This document shows positions 28,023 to 35,906 of a stretch of 37,343 nt of DNA, piece after piece. Made by a program: the position numbers and the translations under genes. Source of the DNA: Candidatus Nanoarchaeia archaeon (GTDB lineage: Archaea; Nanobdellota; Nanobdellia; Woesearchaeales; SM23-78); the NCBI GenBank assembly GCA_035256305.1, contig DATEYH010000138.1, forward strand, positions 1-37,343, written 5' to 3'. Each line of letters begins with the position of its first letter. The first letter of the stretch is position 1. The notes under the pieces are model-generated. The model searched no databases. It was not told where the DNA came from and was given only the letters and a program-made list of their open reading frames with translations.

Positions 28023-28555
28023 TTAAGAATAAAACAAAAATTCTTTTTTATATTTAATTTTGAAACATAATTTCTTAGAAATAATAAATTAATGATAGCT
28101 GTTCATAGGAATCAACAACCAAGGTTGTTGAGCCAAAAATTCTGAGGAATTTTTGTGCATCATAGTCTTTGCTTCTCAGAGCCAATTCTCTGATTTGATT
28201 GTTAAATGAGAGATTGGACTTATTAGTGGCTGCATGCTGAGCACCTTGTTGCCTTGGTGCGTACACACCAGCTCTATCAACCCGATCTTCTATCGGCGTC
28301 CATGAGCGTCTCTTTTCAAGGATGGCTTCATACTTAGATGCTTTCAGTATTTATCCATGTAAAGCGTAGCTGCCCGGCCTACCCTGTCGGATAACCGGTC
28401 GACCAGAGGCTTCGGGCCCTCGTTCCTCTCGTACTAAAGGTCCCTTCCTTTCAGACACCCAACACTTCCAGTAGATATCAAACAAACTGCCTCGCAGCGT
28501 TCTGAACCCAGCTCACGATCCCTTTTGATAGGTGAACACCCTCACCCTTGGCCGC

Positions 28556-28588
28556 ATACAGTACCTTCTTACTTTCGCAAAAAGGTTA
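28556..28588 (-). other. 33-nt BHB-type mini-intron in 23S domain V (hairpin after GAUGUCGGCU)
   Basis: Outer helix GGCCG/CGGCC, central helix GCAG/CUGU, bulges AAU and AUG, inner helix ACCUU/AAGGU. Removal gives CCGUGCAGAAGCGGCC, the conserved archaeal LSU sequence as I recall it. Confidence 0.6.
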
Positions 28589-28852
28589 TTCTGCACGGCC
28601 AGGATAGGAAGAGCCGACATCTATGTAGCAAACCGCGCCGTCGATAGGAGCTCTCGGGCGCGACAACTCTGTTATCCCCGGAGTAACTTTTCGGTCGGTA
28701 CCGTCCCCCATTCAAGGAGGAACGGCAGTTCGTTAGGCCCAACTTTCGTTTCTGGTATTCTTCTTATTCAAATACCAGTCAGGCTGGCTTTTGCCCTTAC
28801 ACTCAACATCGGATTTCTGACCCGACTGAGCCAACCTTGGGGCGCCACTGAT

Positions 28853-28897
28853 ATAAAGCGAGCATAGACAAGCTTTATCAAGCAATCTATTGCTCAT
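28853..28897 (-). other. 45-nt BHB-type mini-intron in 23S domain V
   Basis: Textbook helix-bulge-helix-bulge-helix: GCCGCUGA/UCAGUGGC, central AAAG/CUUU, two AUA bulges, inner helix UGAGCA-UAGA/UCUAUGCUCG. Removal gives GCUGAAAAGAUAUCAGUGGC. Confidence 0.75.
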
Positions 28898-29233
28898 ATC
28901 TTTTCAGCGGCGTGCCACCCCAGCCAAACTGTCCACCTGCCGGTGTCCAAGTCACAAGGACTTGTGAGCAGCGTAAAACCAGATGAGTAGTGTTACATCG
29001 ACGTCTAAACCTGCACTTGCATGCAAGCCTCAAACAACTCCTACTTACTCTATACACCCGGTCTCACGTTGCAGCAACAGGCTACAGTAAAGTTTCACGG
29101 GGTCTTCGCTTCCCACTGGAAGTCTCTGGTCTTTGCACCAGAACAAAATTTTCAGAGGGTTCCGGTTGGGGACAGTGGAGATCTCGTTACGCCATTCATG
29201 CAGGCCGTCAATCAAACGGCAAGGCATTTCGCT

Positions 29234-30005
29234 CACATCTGTTACTTCCCTTAAAATTTAAGGTACTGACCTTCTCTTTAAGGCGGACAAGCATTTCTAC
29301 TAGTTGCTCAAAAATCTCAAATGATTTTTGGCAACCCCAAAACCACATGGTTTTGATGTCTCCTCACATCGCTATGAGGGTCGGACTATATCTTAACACT
29401 CATCAAAGAGTGTTTTTGGCGTATAGTCTCTGAGGATTCTAGACGCCTTATGACTTTTCGGTTCATCTCAGAAGCAAGTTCAGCTATTTTCTCTAAGCCT
29501 GCTCTTGACAAGTGCTCCTTTTTATTCATAATCCCTAATATTTGTGCAAAGAGTTCAAAGCTATTCTTCTTAGAAGTTTGAAGAGGATTTTCATTTATGA
29601 ACTGAACTATACGGTTCAGGTTGTCTAATCCTCTCACTCGGAACTCTTTCCTATCTCCGTTATTCACAGTTACGCTTCCAAAACCAAAATATGACTTGAT
29701 TCTGTGAAGTACTGCTTCATCGCGTTGATGTTGCACTATCCTTAATTCAGGGAGTACCTGCCATTTTAAGGTCATTTTCTCTAATCTATTAATAGACACA
29801 TGAAAACAACCTTCTCCATCAATGAATCCGACAATCCACTTAGCATCCAGTCTTTCCTGCTGATTATCTGCACCTATCACTTTTTCACCCTGACAACATA
29901 TAAACGTTTTAATTTAAATAGCTCACGTTAATATGTCCAGTGGTAGTGTAGGACTCTCAGACGTCCCAGCATATAGCCAGATTGTTTAAGGCAACTTCTG
30001 TGCTT
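29234..30005 (-). mobile_element. group I intron (772 nt) in 23S domain IV, carrying a LAGLIDADG homing endonuclease ORF
   Basis: Interrupts CUUAAGGU|AGCGAAAUGCC. The 5' exon ends in U, paired as U.G in a 7-bp P1 with internal guide GCCUUAA 13 nt into the intron. The intron ends in G. AAGAUAUAGUCCGACC (the classical S/P7 3' element) follows the ORF, with candidate P7 partner GGACAUAU. Confidence 0.75.
29386..29880 (-). CDS. LAGLIDADG homing endonuclease (single-motif type)
   Basis: KWIVGFIDGEGCFHVSI motif near the N-terminus; 164 aa; GTG start; sits inside the intron and its stop codon lies within the AAGAUAUAGUCC core element. Confidence 0.85.
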   Translation of the reverse strand: MIGADNQQERLDAKWIVGFIDGEGCFHVSINRLEKMTLKWQVLPELRIVQHQRDEAVLHRIKSYFGFGSVTVNNGDRKEFRVRGLDNLNRIVQFINENPLQTSKKNSFELFAQILGIMNKKEHLSRAGLEKIAELASEMNRKVIRRLESSETIRQKHSLMSVKI

Positions 30006-30837
30006 ACCTTAAGAGAGTTATAGTTACTCCCGCCGTTTACCTGTCCTTCGTTCCCTTGGATGGGATTTTCAGATACAGGCACTGGGCAGACGTCACCGAC
30101 TATTCTAGCCCTTACGGGTTGGCAGTCGGTTAAGTTTTTGTTAAACAGTCGGACCTCCTTTGTTACTGTGCCTTACACTCGCATTCTTATGAATACAAGT
30201 GTAGGGACCCCTTAGACCGAAGGCTTGGGGCTAATTTGCCGAATTCCCTCAACCAGATTGTCCCTTCTCGCCGTGGGCTTCTCACCCAGGGGCACCTGTG
30301 CCGGTGCTGGGTATAGACATAAAGGATTTTTCCCTGTTCCCTTTTCAAGGGCTCCGGGTATTAGCTGAACAATACTTAAGTACTGCTGTTCTAAGAGTTG
30401 ACCAGGTTCTCATCGTTACGATACTCCCCTGACCTGCCCTTATTAACAATCCCGACGGGGATTGTCAGCCTAACCAGAAGCGTCAGGAACAAGGCTTGCG
30501 TTACCGCACATACCAATATGGTACAGGAATATTAACCTGTTTCCCTTTCCTCTACTAGCTCAAGTTATGAGCTGAGTTAGGACTAACTTACCCTTGGCTG
30601 ATCTGCATTGCCAAGGAACCCTTGCCCTTTCAGCGACACTGATTCTCACAGTGCTAAGTTCTTACTATTACCAGGATTCTCATTCCTGCAAGATTGACCT
30701 CTCCTCTCGGAGAAGCTTCTGCTCTAGCAGGACGCCTACCTACCGCAACGCTTGCGCGTGCCAGCGGTCTCGGTGACTGATTTAGCCCCGTCCATCTTAG
30801 GCGCTCATAACCTCGAAGAGTAAGCTGTTACGCACTT

Positions 30838-30870
<33 letters not shown>

Positions 30871-32235
30871 CGCTGTCTTTGGTTATGAACAACCTTCACC
30901 CTTTCACACTTAACCAATGCTTAGGGACCTTAACCGCTGTCTGGGTTGTTCCCCTCTCGCGCATCACCCTTACGACGATGCGCCGTCTCCTGAGGTCTAC
31001 AGTGCATGGGACTTTGGAGTTGGACAAAGAACCGACCACTTTCGCGGCCTAAATCCTAAATCCGTAGCTCTACCTCCCAGGCAACCTCGCTCAGGGCTTG
31101 ACTGCAGCCAACTTCGGTAGGAACCAGCTATCGCCGAACTCGATTGGCTTTTTACCCCTACGCTCAAGTTAGAAGAACATTTGTACATAGAACCTCTGCA
31201 GGCCTCCACCCTTCTTTAGAAGGGCTTCACCTTACCCAAGTGTAGTTCGTCCGGCTTCGGGTCTGGTCCGAGTGACTAAAGGCGCTTTCACACCTCTCCC
31301 CTCGCATGCTGCGGGATATTGCTTTCGCTTTGGATGCCCATTGATTAATGGTTATCCTTGCCACTCAGACAAACTCCCTGGCTCGTTATTCTAAACGCAC
31401 GATACACAGCCGAAGCTGCGTATCCCGCTGTATCTACTAGGTTTCAAGTTCTATTTGACTCTCTGTCAAGAGTTCTTTTCAGCTTTCCCTCACGGTACTG
31501 GTTCGCTATCGGACTCAAAACGTGTTTAGGGTTAGGAGTTGATGCCTCCTAGCTTCGCACCTAGTATCCAGTAGGTGCTACTCAAGATACTGCCACGCCT
31601 CCCTGACTCCCTCTACGGGACTATCACCCTCTATGGTACTTCTTTCCAGAAGACTTTGAGTCATCAGGGTAAGGTCTAAAAGACAGTCTTACAAATCCAC
31701 ATCCCATCTCATTTTTCAATGAAAGGTTCAGATTGCCCTTTGCTGCTTTCGCTCTCTGCTAATAACAGCATCCTTAGTTTAGTTTCTCTTCCTGCAGGTA
31801 CTAAGACGTTTCAGTTCCCTGCGTATAGCTAGCCTTTCGGCTTCAAAGCGAAGTCGCATTCAGAAATCCCTGGTTCAACCCCTGCGTGCGGGTCGCCAAG
31901 GCTTTTCGTGGCTTGCCACGTCCTTCTTCGCCGTCTTGAGCCAAGCTATCCTCCTAGTAGAGTATTTTCTCTCAGAACTTAGCAATCATTTCAGAGACTT
32001 ATCTCTGTGTTGCAAAGACCAATAATTTCCTATGAACAGCCTTCATTAAACATGAGTAAATGAATATTGGTCGACATGAAAAAGCATGTCTTCTCGTGTT
32101 CTGAGCTTCTTCACCCAGCAAGTCTTAGTTGCCGAGCTGCTAATAAAAAATTGAATATGAAATGTAAGTGGACTCTGCGACAACAAAAATCGCGAAGCGA
32201 TTTTTGAGTCCTCGAGTCCATCTCACTTCGTTCGA

Positions 32236-32377: not shown

Positions 32378-33224
32378 ATGCCGGGGGTATAATCCCCTTT
32401 TGCTCCTGTGAATAGCAAAAAAATAATGTGGTAGGAGAAGAACTAGCCTAACAAGATTCTAATATTTATATAAAAAATTATAGGAGGTGATCCCACCGCA
32501 GGTTCCCCTACGGTGACCTTGTGACGACTTAACCCATCTCACTGAACTCAGGTTCAACACAACCAAGAAAGCTGTGTTTCACCTAAACCCTGCTCGATTG
32601 GTTTGACGGGCGGTGTGTGCAAGAGACAGGGACATATTCACCGGACTATGCTAAAATCCGATTACTAGGGATTCCATCGTCACGAGGCTGAGTTACAAGC
32701 CTCGATCTGAACTAAGATATGGTTTAGAGGTTTAGCTCCCCCTTTCGGGGTGGCATCCCATTGTCCATACCATTGTTGCGCGCGTGTAGCCTAGAGCATT
32801 CGGAGCATACAGACCTACCGTAGCCTGCACCTTCCTCCCTGTTTCCAGGGCAGTCCCCTCAAAGTGCTCAATCCATCCGTGGATGTTGTTAGCAATAGAG
32901 GGTACAGGTCTCGCTCGTTGCCAGACTTAACTGGACGCTTCACAGCACGAGCTGGCGACGGCCATGCACTACCTCTCGGCTTGTCAGGTAATGTCTTCAG
33001 CATGACCTTCATTCTGCCGTCGGCTCTAGTGAGGTTCTCTGCGTTGAGTTAGATTGAACCGCACGCCGCACCCCTTGTGGTGTCTCCCCGCCAATTCCTT
33101 AAAGTTTCAGCCTTGCGACCGTACTTCCCTGGTGGCGAGCTTAACGACTTCTCTTCGACACTGCGCATCCTCGTGGGGTGCGCAATACCTTGCTCGCAGC
33201 GTTTACAGCTAGGACTACTCGGGT

Positions 33225-33368
33225 AATTAGCACCTTTATTTCCATAACGTATCAGAATTTGCAATGGATTGTAGTAATTTTTTCTTGGCAAAAACAAATC
33301 GTTCAGTGGGTTTTAACGAAGTTAAAATCCCACATTGCATTTTTTGGTACAGCTTTGATTAAAGGTGT
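33225..33368 (-). other. 144-nt BHB-type intron in 16S, inside the GGAUUAGAUACCC block
   Basis: Central helix UUAG/CUAA, bulges AUA and UUA, 8-bp inner helix CACCUUUA/UAAAGGUG. Cutting after the 2nd bulge nt restores GGAUUAGAU|ACCCGAGUAGUCC. Contains a 12-bp UUCG-capped hairpin. Confidence 0.8.
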
Positions 33369-33852
33369 ATCTAATCCGTTTTGCTCCCCTAGCTTTCGTT
33401 CCTCACAGTCGGACCCGTCCTGGCCAGATGCCTTCGCCATTGGTAGTCCTCCCTGGATTAACCCATTTTACCGGTACCCAAGGAATACTTCTGACCTCTT
33501 CCGGTCCCGAGTCTTGTAGTGTCCTCTGCACGCCGACAGGTTAAGCCTGCCGATTTCACAAAGGATTTTCAAGACCTGCTACGAACGCTTTAGACCCAAT
33601 AATCGTGATGACCACTTGGGGCGCTGGGGTTACCGCGGCGGCTGGCACCAGTCTTGCCCACCCCTTATTCGCCAAGCTTTTTACACATGGCAAAAGCCTA
33701 TCAATGATAAGCACTTGGGATCCCCTTCTCACACTTGCGTGCATTGGAAAGGTTTCGCGCCTGCTGCACCCCGTGGGGCTGGGACCAGTATCTCAGTGTC
33801 CCTCTCCGGGCTCCCACTCTCATGGCCCGTACGGATCCTAGGTTTGGTGGTC

Positions 33853-33896
33853 TTGTAAGCGCCAGCTTACAACCCAAAAGGGTTAGCTTTTGCGTG
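33853..33896 (-). other. 44-nt BHB-type mini-intron in 16S (helix equivalent to E. coli ~255-270)
   Basis: Outer helix UUGGCGGU/ACCACCAA, central helix GUAA/UUAC, bulges UGC and AAG. Removal gives UUGGCGGUGUAAUGGACCACCAA, colinear with the conserved UUGGUGGGGUAACGGCCCACCAA. Confidence 0.65.
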
Positions 33897-34391
33897 CATT
33901 ACACCGCCAACAGCCTAATCCGCCGCCAGTCCATCCTATGGCACGAGTTTAAGGAAGAGCCCATTCCAGGGCTTGTTCCCTATCAGGTATTACCCTCACT
34001 TTCGCGAAGCTATCCCCGACCATAGGGCAGGTTACCGACGTGTTACTGAGCCTTTCGCCTCCATTGCTGGATGACTTGCATGGCTTAATCGGATCCCAAT
34101 AGCAGCAATCTCCCGCAGGATCAACGGGAACTGATTATTTGATTATTCGGCTAAAACTTTAATGAAACTTTATTAGAATTCTGCTAAACAGGATTCTTTC
34201 TCCTACCAGTATACTTGAATAGCTAGTTCAAGCATGAAACAAACTTTTCGAGTTATGCTGATGCAAAAGATGCTTAATCCAGACTTTCGTCGAGATGTTT
34301 TTAATTCTGCATAACTATGGCGCTGATCGCTTGTAGAGAATCAGTGTTTAGATCCTCGCCTGAAAATGCGTGTTTTCAGAGAGTTATAGGG

Positions 34392-35478: not shown

Positions 35479-35538
35479 GTTTAAACACTGAGTTTTATTT
35501 CGTTTTATAAATCTTTTTAAAAATTAAAAAATAATTCA

Positions 35539-35702
35539 TGCCCCGAACGGGATTTGAACCCGTGTCCTCGGATGTTTTCGGCGTGAGGCAAAAACCTCAG
35601 CAACTTTGTTGCTCGCCGCGAAAATCCGAGATGATTGTTCCCGCAAGGGAACCAAGGAAACAGCTTCCTTGTTTCCTTTGGACCGGACTACACCATCGGG
35701 GC
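35539..35702 (-). tRNA. tRNA-Glu(UUC) with two introns (about 43 nt in the D-loop, 35635-35677; 45 nt at 37/38, 35574-35618)
   Basis: Acceptor GCCCCGA/UCGGGGC, D region GUGUAGUCCGGUCCAA..UCAU typical of archaeal tRNA-Glu, anticodon stem UCGGA/UCCGA, loop UUUUCG-A, variable GGAC, T arm ACGGG-UUCAAAU-CCCGU. D-loop intron ends are ambiguous by about 2 nt. Confidence 0.8.
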
Positions 35703-35705
35703 AAG

Positions 35706-35906
35706 TGGGCCCACAGGGACTTTCACCAGATATTTGCACCTTCGGTAACGCGGAGGACTTAACGAAGTTAATGTCCTCCTTGCTTGCTTTTTACCAGATT
35801 TTTCGGCAAAAATCTGTTTTGAACCCCAGACCCCCGGCTGTCCTATTCAGTGTTCGAAGCACTGCCTTATAAGACCGGTGCTCCAGCCAGGCTAAGCTAT
35901 GGGCCC
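35706..35906 (-). tRNA. tRNA-Ile(UAU) with two introns (28 nt at 37/38, 35840-35867; 98 nt in the T-loop at 59/60, 35720-35817)
   Basis: Acceptor GGGCCCA/UGGGCCC, D arm GCUU/GAGC, anticodon stem CCGGU/GCCGG, loop CUUAUA-A, variable GGGUC, T stem UGGGG/CCCUG. T-loop intron has a canonical BHB: central UUCA/UGAA, bulges AAA and AGU, inner helix CAGAU/AUCUG. Only 3 nt separate it from tRNA-Glu. Confidence 0.85.

Follow-up and report, generated by a model that had tools for sequence, protein, structure and literature searches.

A tRNA-Glu(UUC) gene of a Woesearchaeales archaeon interrupted by a strict anticodon-loop intron and a relaxed D-loop intron of an order-wide family

Results and discussion

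The tRNA-Glu locus and its anticodon intron

The window analysed here is a stretch of 37,343 nucleotides (nt), positions 1 to 37,343 of the forward strand of contig DATEYH010000138.1 (assembly GCA_035256305.1), from Candidatus Nanoarchaeia archaeon, a member of the order Woesearchaeales whose assembly comprises 165 contigs, has a G+C content of 42.6% and is 83.6% complete. On its minus strand, directly downstream of a tRNA-Ile gene, lies a 164-nt gene for tRNA-Glu(UUC) in which CCA is not encoded and which is divided into three exons by one intron in the D-loop and another in the anticodon loop (Table 1). The gene, its motifs, the conservation and covariation of these motifs among relatives, and the enzyme genes of the host are read directly from the genomes. 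On them we base an interpretation that we regard as very likely, namely that this is a functional tRNA-Glu(UUC) gene, co-transcribed with tRNA-Ile, whose two introns, one with a strict bulge-helix-bulge (BHB) motif at position 37/38 and one with a relaxed motif of the HBh' form at position 20/20a, would be spliced by the tRNA endonuclease. In the following, G000 designates this genome and other G numbers its relatives within the order.

Table 1. Features of the tRNA-Ile/tRNA-Glu locus in the window (^ marks a cut)
Feature	Position	Strand	Basis or remark
TATA-like box TTTTTAAA	35936..35943	-	about 30-37 nt upstream of tRNA-Ile G1; likely promoter of the pair
tRNA-Ile(UAU), upstream gene, two introns	35706..35906	-	read by eye
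Spacer CUU, 3 nt	35703..35705	-	from tRNA-Ile A73 (35706) to tRNA-Glu G1 (35702)
tRNA-Glu(UUC) gene	35702..35539	-	164 nt
Exon 1 (acceptor 5' strand, U8 G9, D-stem 5' strand, D-loop to U20)	35682..35702	-	sequence, orthologues
Central helix, exon strand U16 C17 C17a G18	35684..35687	-	pairs with CGGG 35643..35640
5' bulge G19 U20^C, 3 nt	35683, 35682 ^ 35681	-	between central and inner helices
D-loop intron, 44 nt, position 20/20a, relaxed BHB (HBh')	35638..35681	-	BHB scan, p=21, q=65
Inner helix h', 5' strand CAA	35678..35680	-	pairs with UUG 35646..35644
Central helix, intron strand CGGG	35640..35643	-	then 3' splice site AA^C (35639, 35638 ^ 35637)
Exon 2 (rest of D-loop, D-stem 3' strand, anticodon stem 5' strand, loop to G37)	35619..35637	-	
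Anticodon UUC	35622..35620	-	within exon 2
Anticodon intron, 45 nt, position 37/38, strict hBHBh'	35618..35574	-	exhaustive BHB scan
Exon 3 (A38, anticodon stem 3' strand, variable loop, T-arm, acceptor 3' strand, discriminator A)	35539..35573	-	
T6 run, then more T runs	35526..35531	-	8 nt past the discriminator; likely archaeal terminator

Read from its 5' end, the gene runs GCCCCGA UG GUGU AGUCCGGU (44 nt) CAA UCAU C UCGGA UUUUCG (45 nt) A UCCGA GGAC ACGGG UUCAAAU CCCGU UCGGGGC A. The exons hold what is expected of an archaeal tRNA-Glu: an acceptor stem of 7 base pairs (bp; GCCCCGA/UCGGGGC), a D-arm (GUGU...UCAU), a 5-bp anticodon stem (UCGGA/UCCGA) closing the 7-nt loop UUUUCG^A with the anticodon UUC, and the T-arm GGGUUCAAAUCCC (ACGGG UUCAAAU CCCGU). 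In-silico removal of the 44 and 45 nt yields a 75-nt cloverleaf with all stems intact, which ARAGORN calls as tRNA-Glu(ttc), in agreement with the preliminary description of the locus as a tRNA-Glu with introns in the D-loop and the anticodon loop. The spliced sequence has the same length as the intron-less orthologues of relatives and is identical to them at 62-69 of the 75 positions, the orthologue of G023 reaching 69/75 (92%).

The unspliced gene escapes standard tools. For the window as a whole ARAGORN returns no tRNA at all, and the tRNA model of Rfam leaves the tRNA-Glu gene unreported both at the gathering cut-off and at E<=10; a tmRNA-like partial Rfam match on the T-arm (E<=10) was judged spurious. 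Because the same model finds only 11 tRNAs in the 1.18 Mb of the genome, most of them 99-132 nt long, the majority of the tRNAs of this organism are hidden behind introns.

The anticodon intron is the simpler of the two. An exhaustive scan, in which all cut pairs were tested for the 3-4-3 geometry of the bulge-helix-bulge, placed it first (p=84, q=129), with all four central pairs formed between U32-U35 and GAAA (the fourth being U.G), 3-nt bulges CG^C and AC^A on opposite strands, and flanking helices of 7 bp (the extended anticodon stem) and 4 bp (the inner helix GGCG/CGCC). The earlier description of this intron (45 nt, bulge CG^C) is confirmed; the helix given there as UUUU/AAAA reads UUUU/GAAA when set in the 3-4-3 register. 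G009, G012 and G019 have homologous introns at 37/38 that show compensatory changes, introns of another kind occupy the site in G014 and G010, and G006 and G023 have none.

Boundaries and motif of the D-loop intron

The extent of the D-loop intron follows from genes that lack it. Twelve distinct intron-less tRNA-Glu genes of relatives, 75 nt long, read GTGTAG(T/C)C(C/T)GG(T/C)CAATCAT in the D region, with GTGTAGTCCGG(T/C)CAATCAT around the point at which exon 1 ends here, and their mature D-loop is AGUCCGGUCAA, of 11 nt. Since the orthologues carry an 11-nt loop, the intron is the 44 nt from 35681 to 35638, the removal of which leaves the 11-nt loop GGUCAAUCAU in a 75-nt tRNA; in our Sprinzl numbering the cut falls between U20 and C20a. 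The insert had been put at about 43 nt, with GUCCAA/UCAU as the flanking D-loop, and both values have to be revised.

Around these boundaries the scan (p=21, q=65) finds four central pairs between the D-loop and the intron (U16.G, C17-G, C17a-G and G18-C) and an inner helix of 3 bp. The outer helix has length zero, as neither G15 and A67 nor A14 and A68 can pair. The 3' splice site lies two nt past the central helix and is followed by AA and the D-stem with no closing outer helix. PMC5829648 and PMC3488258 describe this arrangement as the relaxed HBh' form: a central helix of 4 bp and a single intact bulge of 3 nt with another helix on its far side. No strict motif is available, the outer helix being absent in every register that restores the tRNA-Glu D-loop (scan and manual inspection of p=21-25). 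The earlier statement that the insert could not be folded into a strict motif is upheld to this extent, but a BHB-like fold exists nonetheless. Because the D-loop intron is without a strict motif, an endonuclease tolerant of relaxed motifs is implied, as had been suggested. The possibility of two separate or nested small introns was rejected, for the candidates that the scan lists within the insert (such as p=31, q=50) are weak and their removal restores no D-loop. The scan lists many candidates with four central pairs, so that a single match in one D-loop could be due to chance, and the motif was therefore tested by comparison with relatives.

A family of D-loop introns across the order

When the Ile-Glu region was compared by BLAST with 60 relatives, the same insert was recovered in tRNA-Glu(UUC) of G014 and G044, in tRNA-Glu(CUC) of G003, G005, G014 and G022, in tRNA-Gln(UUG) of G013 and G052, and in a tRNA-Asp(GUC) gene of the host genome itself (C41:3433-3582). 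The orthologous gene of the closest relative, G014, retains both introns, its 37/38 intron being of the different kind mentioned above. A pattern scan (GTGTAG N3-6 GG N22-50 GCNNNAACWATCA) of 401 genomes of the order gave 32 matches in 28 genomes, while the reversed pattern gave none in the same genomes. The set of 32 introns parsed for structure consists of 28 of the scan matches and 4 copies found by BLAST only; three matches unlike this intron (G078, G098:C179 and G357) and one duplicate (G136:C34, of G136:C30) were left out. All 32 occupy the same position, 21 of them in a Glu-type D-loop, 2 in tRNA-Gln and 9 in an Asp-type D-loop, a group in which only the copy of the host genome is confirmed as tRNA-Asp.

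The three central pairs beside the bulge can be formed in 32/32 introns, the fourth in 21/32, and the inner helix is complete in 29/32. The D-loop and intron strands of the central helix vary together: UCCG and CCCG each occur with CGGG, CUCG with CGAG, UUCG with CGAA, CCUG with CAGG, UCUG with CAGA, and AGUG with CACG. The pairing element of the intron follows the D-loop of its host, being CAGU in tRNA-Asp, CGCG or CACG in tRNA-Gln, and CGAG, CGAA or CAGG elsewhere. At single positions, the pair 17-62 appears as CG, UA or GC and the pair 17a-61 as CG, UA or UG, and the inner helix takes the forms CAA/UUG, CAG/CUG, CGC/GCG, CGU/ACG, CAU/AUG and CUA/UAG.

These observations were quantified on 24 distinct cores, aligned by anchoring; a MAFFT alignment of the whole D regions misaligned the loop of the second hairpin described below and was replaced. 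Pairs are formed in 92.9% of the cells, against 78.3% after shuffling (0/500 shuffles reach 92.9%) and 27-44% when the partner strands are slid by 1-3 columns, and four of the seven pairs show changes on both sides (31 cells). The structure tested was derived from the tRNA-Glu sequence itself, and the signal persists in the columns left free by the search pattern (16-17a with 61-63, and 24-25 with 57-58). The comparative data support the HBh' fold, with its helix between D-loop and CGGG, rather than two independent hairpins as the relevant structure. As a matter of sequence comparison, the covariation speaks to the importance of the helices and not to the identity of the protein that reads them.

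Several related introns deserve mention in their own right. The 150-nt tRNA-Asp(GUC) gene of the host genome (C41, plus strand) has a homologous D-loop intron at the same position with the same first hairpin, an exon-pairing element changed to CAGU, which matches the Asp D-loop CCUG, and in addition a 37/38 intron; spliced in silico it measures 75 nt. An intron shared by tRNA-Glu and tRNA-Asp suggests intron transfer between tRNA genes. The two tRNA-Gln(UUG) genes (L015, G013:C19, and L034, G052:C16) belong to the same family and, with the shorter D-loop AGUGG, form a central helix of only 3 pairs. At neighbouring positions, tRNA-Glu genes of three relatives (L031, G008:C61; L039, G055:C42; L047, G002:C15) carry D-loop introns at 17/17a (28 nt), at 20a/20b (a 15-nt mini-intron with a GAAA loop) and at 19/20 (33 nt). 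T-loop introns occur in many tRNA-Glu genes, and the number of introns per gene ranges from zero to three across relatives.

Competing folds and the status of the gene

A number of observations weigh against the HBh' reading. Because G59, C60 and AAC were prescribed by the search pattern, their columns provide no independent evidence, and the genomes compared, being related, are not independent of one another. Of the central pairs, the outermost (16-63) is U.G here, and 9/24 distinct relatives leave it unpaired. The local minimum-energy fold of the D region consists of two hairpins, AAGGAAACA/UGUUUCCUU and GUUCCC/GGGAAC, at -20.2 kcal/mol, against -17.6 kcal/mol for the BHB-compatible fold, in which the intron becomes one irregular hairpin (CAA/UUG, GGA/UCC, CAAGGAA/UUCCUUG). 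The second hairpin draws on the same GGG as the central helix and extends to C66, the nucleotide with which exon 2 begins, and the tRNA-Asp homologue keeps all 6 bp of it through two compensatory changes. The other points against concern the gene as a whole. At 83.6% completeness, a second, intron-less tRNA-Glu(UUC) may sit in the unassembled part of the genome; and alpha4 endonucleases without specificity loops cut strict motifs only (PMC5829648, PMC3488258), the enzyme of this genome being without the published loops.

The two hairpins are those that the preliminary description had noticed, and both are present; however, the final C of the second belongs to the exon, and we do not consider them the relevant fold. 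With the whole precursor constrained to a cloverleaf, the two-hairpin and BHB-compatible folds are nearly equal (-66.2 versus -65.5 kcal/mol). If the hairpins were nevertheless what matters, the intron would have 43 nt and no BHB-like motif, its excision, by a recognition other than that of a bulge and helix, giving the junction GGUCCAAUCAU and the 12-nt D-loop AGUCCGGUCCAA. A repeat of CAA makes such an excision formally possible, ARAGORN also accepts the 76-nt product as tRNA-Glu, and the energy of the local fold and the compensatory changes in tRNA-Asp agree with it. We nonetheless hold this alternative to be highly improbable: all intron-less orthologues have the 11-nt loop GG(U/C)CAAUCAU and a length of 75 nt, no BHB register fits a 43-nt intron (the scan lists none, nor does manual inspection of p=22-25 provide one), the second hairpin has decayed to 4-5 of its 6 pairs in the tRNA-Gln homologues, in which the pairing with the D-loop is kept, and many members of the family have a single hairpin, the second being absent. 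The first hairpin has a narrow distribution. A search of the host genome for AGGAAAC...GTTTCCT located it at 2 loci only, the introns of this tRNA-Glu and of the tRNA-Asp on C41, each matched on both strands owing to its palindromic nature, with 2 matches for the control. The idea that the insert is a copy of a hairpin module dispersed through this genome was therefore rejected.

A different objection would be that the gene is a decaying pseudogene, or that the insert is retained, GAA and GAG codons being read by another tRNA-Glu(UUC) copy that lies in the 16% of the genome missing from the assembly. Beyond the incompleteness of the assembly, this idea can appeal to an endonuclease without the loops known from enzymes that cut relaxed motifs. 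Yet every exon stem is intact, and the exons are as close to an intron-less orthologue as stated above; the same intron, with both helices maintained by compensatory change, occurs in 27 genomes from many families of the order, including G014, where the orthologous gene retains both introns; and most tRNAs of the genome are equally intron-laden. A second intact tRNA-Glu(UUC), which had been named beforehand as a finding that would speak against the gene, was sought with four fuzzy patterns and not found in the 83.6%-complete assembly. The sole other tRNA-Glu in it is the CUC isoacceptor (C52:874-1093, minus strand), a 220-nt gene that is spliced in silico to 75 nt by the removal of three introns. 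Its D-loop is split at 19/20 by an intron of 78 nt, which has the central helix GUCC/GGGC and the 3' site AA^U; a second intron, of 25 nt, lies at 37/38, and the third, of 42 nt, interrupts the T-loop. A pseudogene or retained insert appears to us the least probable of the explanations considered, marginally less probable even than a 43-nt intron.

The splicing endonuclease

Turning to the enzyme that would process the HBh' intron, the genome encodes one splicing endonuclease, EndA, in a single gene (C15:3347-4063) for a protein of 239 amino acids (aa) that unites the N- and C-terminal domains (PF02778 and PF01974) in one unit. A single gene for an alpha unit with the catalytic Tyr, His and Lys, and no gene for a beta subunit, is the configuration of the alpha4 type, and from this gene content the enzyme is presumably a homotetramer. 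One match is likewise the rule in the order, with 59/61 genomes (G000 and 58/60 relatives, closed genomes included) having exactly that. Apart from a partial duplicate at a contig end, no paralogue was detected in the genome by self-search at E<=10, and a hidden beta subunit was rejected on the grounds that neither this search nor a PF01974 search of the 61 genomes revealed one. The partial duplicate (C18:2201-2446) copies the first 82 residues of EndA with 94% identity and is probably due to strain heterogeneity or assembly redundancy and not a second subunit.

Among relatives of solved structure the best match is 3IEY_A, the catalytic alpha subunit from Nanoarchaeum equitans (E=5e-41), and over residues 94-239 the protein aligns with the Methanocaldococcus jannaschii alpha4 enzyme with one single-residue gap, located outside the loop sites. 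It has a gap of 5 residues opposite residues 157-161 of the ARMAN-2 (archaeal Richmond Mine acidophilic nanoorganism) enzyme, which form the ASL and include K161, and one of 6 residues opposite the Lys/Arg-rich KK.KRSE loop of NEQ205 from N. equitans, between the catalytic Tyr and His. Nine residues intervene between Tyr and His in 35/35 Woesearchaeota sequences, as in M. jannaschii. A loop of the kind that characterizes broad-specificity enzymes, with its conserved Lys (CSL or L1, ASL or L2, NEQ-type or L3), is consequently not found in EndA. The protein does carry a C-terminal Trp, which is typical of broad-specificity enzymes (PMC3488258), and an N-terminal extension of about 70 aa that is rich in Lys and Glu and variable in length within the order, where open frames containing EndA are about 175 to about 358 aa long and the translated proteins measure 177 to 306 aa.

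How such an enzyme would deal with the D-loop intron admits of more than one answer. Removal may need help, from an accessory factor, from recognition of the folded tRNA body as in eukaryotes, or from the Lys-rich N-terminal tail of EndA, or it may be ordered, the 37/38 intron leaving first and the RNA then refolding. The collinearity with the strict-specificity M. jannaschii alpha4 enzyme and the missing ASL and NEQ-loop insertions are in keeping with assistance of this sort, as are the N-terminal extension and the competition of the second hairpin with the central helix; on the other hand, the C-terminal Trp is of the broad-specificity type (PMC3488258), and EndA may suffice alone. On balance we think assisted or ordered removal unlikely, though considerably less so than the two alternatives weighed in the preceding section. 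A broader proposition, which we advance tentatively and to which we would give somewhat less than even chances, is that the loop-less, M. jannaschii-like, single-subunit EndA of Woesearchaeales routinely excises HBh' introns from D-loops and T-loops, its specificity resting on a feature that has yet to be described.

Transcription and processing of the gene pair

The upstream tRNA-Ile gene has the apparent anticodon UAU and two introns of its own, one at 37/38 and a long one in the T-loop. The UAU anticodon is an uncommon archaeal way of reading AUA. Because a TATA-like box precedes tRNA-Ile and T runs follow tRNA-Glu, a single transcript is the simplest arrangement, and the two tRNAs, lying 3 nt apart, are almost certainly transcribed together. 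Boxes similar to that of the pair (TTTAAAAA/TTTATAAA) are found upstream of the tRNA-Glu genes of relatives in which no tRNA-Ile stands in front.

The order Ile-Glu is conserved in relatives, and the 3-nt distance reported earlier is accurate, with CUU between the discriminator of tRNA-Ile and G1 of tRNA-Glu. From this spacing it had been concluded that RNase P and RNase Z must act on nearly adjacent sites of one transcript. The relatives show the distance to be nothing special, for their spacers measure 3 nt in G021 (CGC), 9 nt in G050, 12 nt in G009, 15 nt in G039, 26 nt in G006 and about 117 nt in G014, where a hairpin module is inserted. Since both enzymes are encoded in the genome, the short spacer calls for no special mechanism. 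RNase P is represented by its RNA, and the RNase Z gene, a fragment cut by the contig end, is the divergent neighbour of EndA (C15:3347-4507); RtcB is encoded as well.

Taken together, these elements allow a pathway to be proposed. After co-transcription of tRNA-Ile and tRNA-Glu, the D-loop segment U16-C17-C17a-G18 would pair with the CGGG of the intron to form the 4-bp central helix. This would leave the 5' splice site in the bulge G19 U20^C, between the central helix and CAA/UUG, which extends into the intron hairpin, and would place the 3' splice site, AA^C, within an internal loop continuous with the D-stem. The single alpha-type endonuclease would cut all four sites and RtcB would join the exons, while RNase P and RNase Z would separate and trim both tRNAs, CCA being added later.

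Further observations concern the surroundings of these genes. Upstream of several tRNA-Glu genes (L044, L007, L041, L036, L047 and L002, the last being G014:C12, between tRNA-Ile and tRNA-Glu) lies a stranded copy of the first 14-30 nt of the tRNA, which in L036 reaches about 30 nt. Behind this copy comes a module with a hairpin that ends in ...GAACGCTCA...GCGAAG, and in G014 it is such a module that sets tRNA-Ile and tRNA-Glu apart; a similar module precedes the tRNA-Asp gene on C41. The RNase P RNA match (C35:1586-1947) spans 362 nt, compared with 288 positions in the model, scores 119 bits and may carry an insertion. In the window itself, the minus-strand genes of 23S rRNA (28202-31977) and 16S rRNA (32482-34131) measure 3776 and 1650 nt, and because both exceed their Rfam models (2987 and 1478 positions) they contain sizeable insertions, either introns or expansion segments.

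Relation to known systems

The closest known case is tRNA-Glu(UUC) of Methanopyrus kandleri, whose precursor has an HBh' intron in the D-loop at 20b/21 together with a canonical intron at 37/38, and whose mature form is seen in RNA-seq data (Kaneta et al. 2018, PMC5829648). The likeness extends to the tRNA species and to the combination of a non-canonical D-loop intron with a canonical BHB intron in the anticodon loop. The position in the D-loop differs, however (20b/21 as opposed to 20/20a), M. kandleri has an (alpha-beta)2 endonuclease whereas one alpha-type gene is present here, and a hyperthermophilic euryarchaeon stands against a member of the DPANN archaea. Because the two organisms are unrelated, their D-loop introns are probably independent acquisitions.

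PMC5829648 and PMC3488258 cite further genes with several introns, and with introns at non-canonical positions, from Thermoproteales, Nanoarchaeota and ARMAN (Marck and Grosjean 2003; Sugahara 2008/2009; Fujishima 2010/2011). Such genes share with the present one the relaxed introns (HBh' or hBH) outside the anticodon loop, several to a gene, and the homologous introns in different tRNAs, a pattern that was read as intron transposition; unlike the single alpha enzyme described above, the endonucleases involved are of the (alpha-beta)2 or epsilon2 type and possess CSL or ASL loops. The study of Kaneta et al. (2018, PMC5829648) associates alpha4-type EndA of DPANN archaea with increased disruption of tRNA genes and attributes this to an 'L3' loop in Nanoarchaea and ARMAN-2, which we equate, following our reading of PMC3488258, with the NEQ 90-98 loop. 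A single-subunit enzyme and heavily disrupted tRNA genes are common to both situations, but in this genome and 34 relatives the Tyr-His spacing is that of M. jannaschii, with no L3-type insertion.

Conclusions

Considered by itself, the tRNA-Glu(UUC) gene is an ordinary disrupted tRNA gene of kinds known from Thermoproteales, Nanoarchaeota, ARMAN and M. kandleri. Two points set it apart: an order-wide family of D-loop introns whose exon-pairing element re-adapts to tRNA-Glu, tRNA-Asp and tRNA-Gln, and the apparent mismatch of relaxed introns with a loop-less single-subunit endonuclease. Introns of this sort explain why standard finders return incomplete tRNA sets for these genomes, as with the few tRNAs detected by Rfam genome-wide and the none detected by ARAGORN in the window. 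Across the 32 related introns, the helix between exon and intron changes in step with the host tRNA, as would be expected from intron transfer between tRNA genes followed by re-adaptation.

In this organism relaxed introns are paired with an endonuclease without the loops currently thought necessary to cut them, and enzyme and transcript together form a directly testable pairing. Should the loop-less EndA of Woesearchaeales prove to excise HBh' introns routinely, its specificity might be determined by the C-terminal Trp, by the N-terminal tail, which is variable and rich in Lys and Glu, or by an accessory factor, and the D-loop intron family of tRNA-Glu, tRNA-Asp and tRNA-Gln would provide a natural set of substrates with which to map that specificity.

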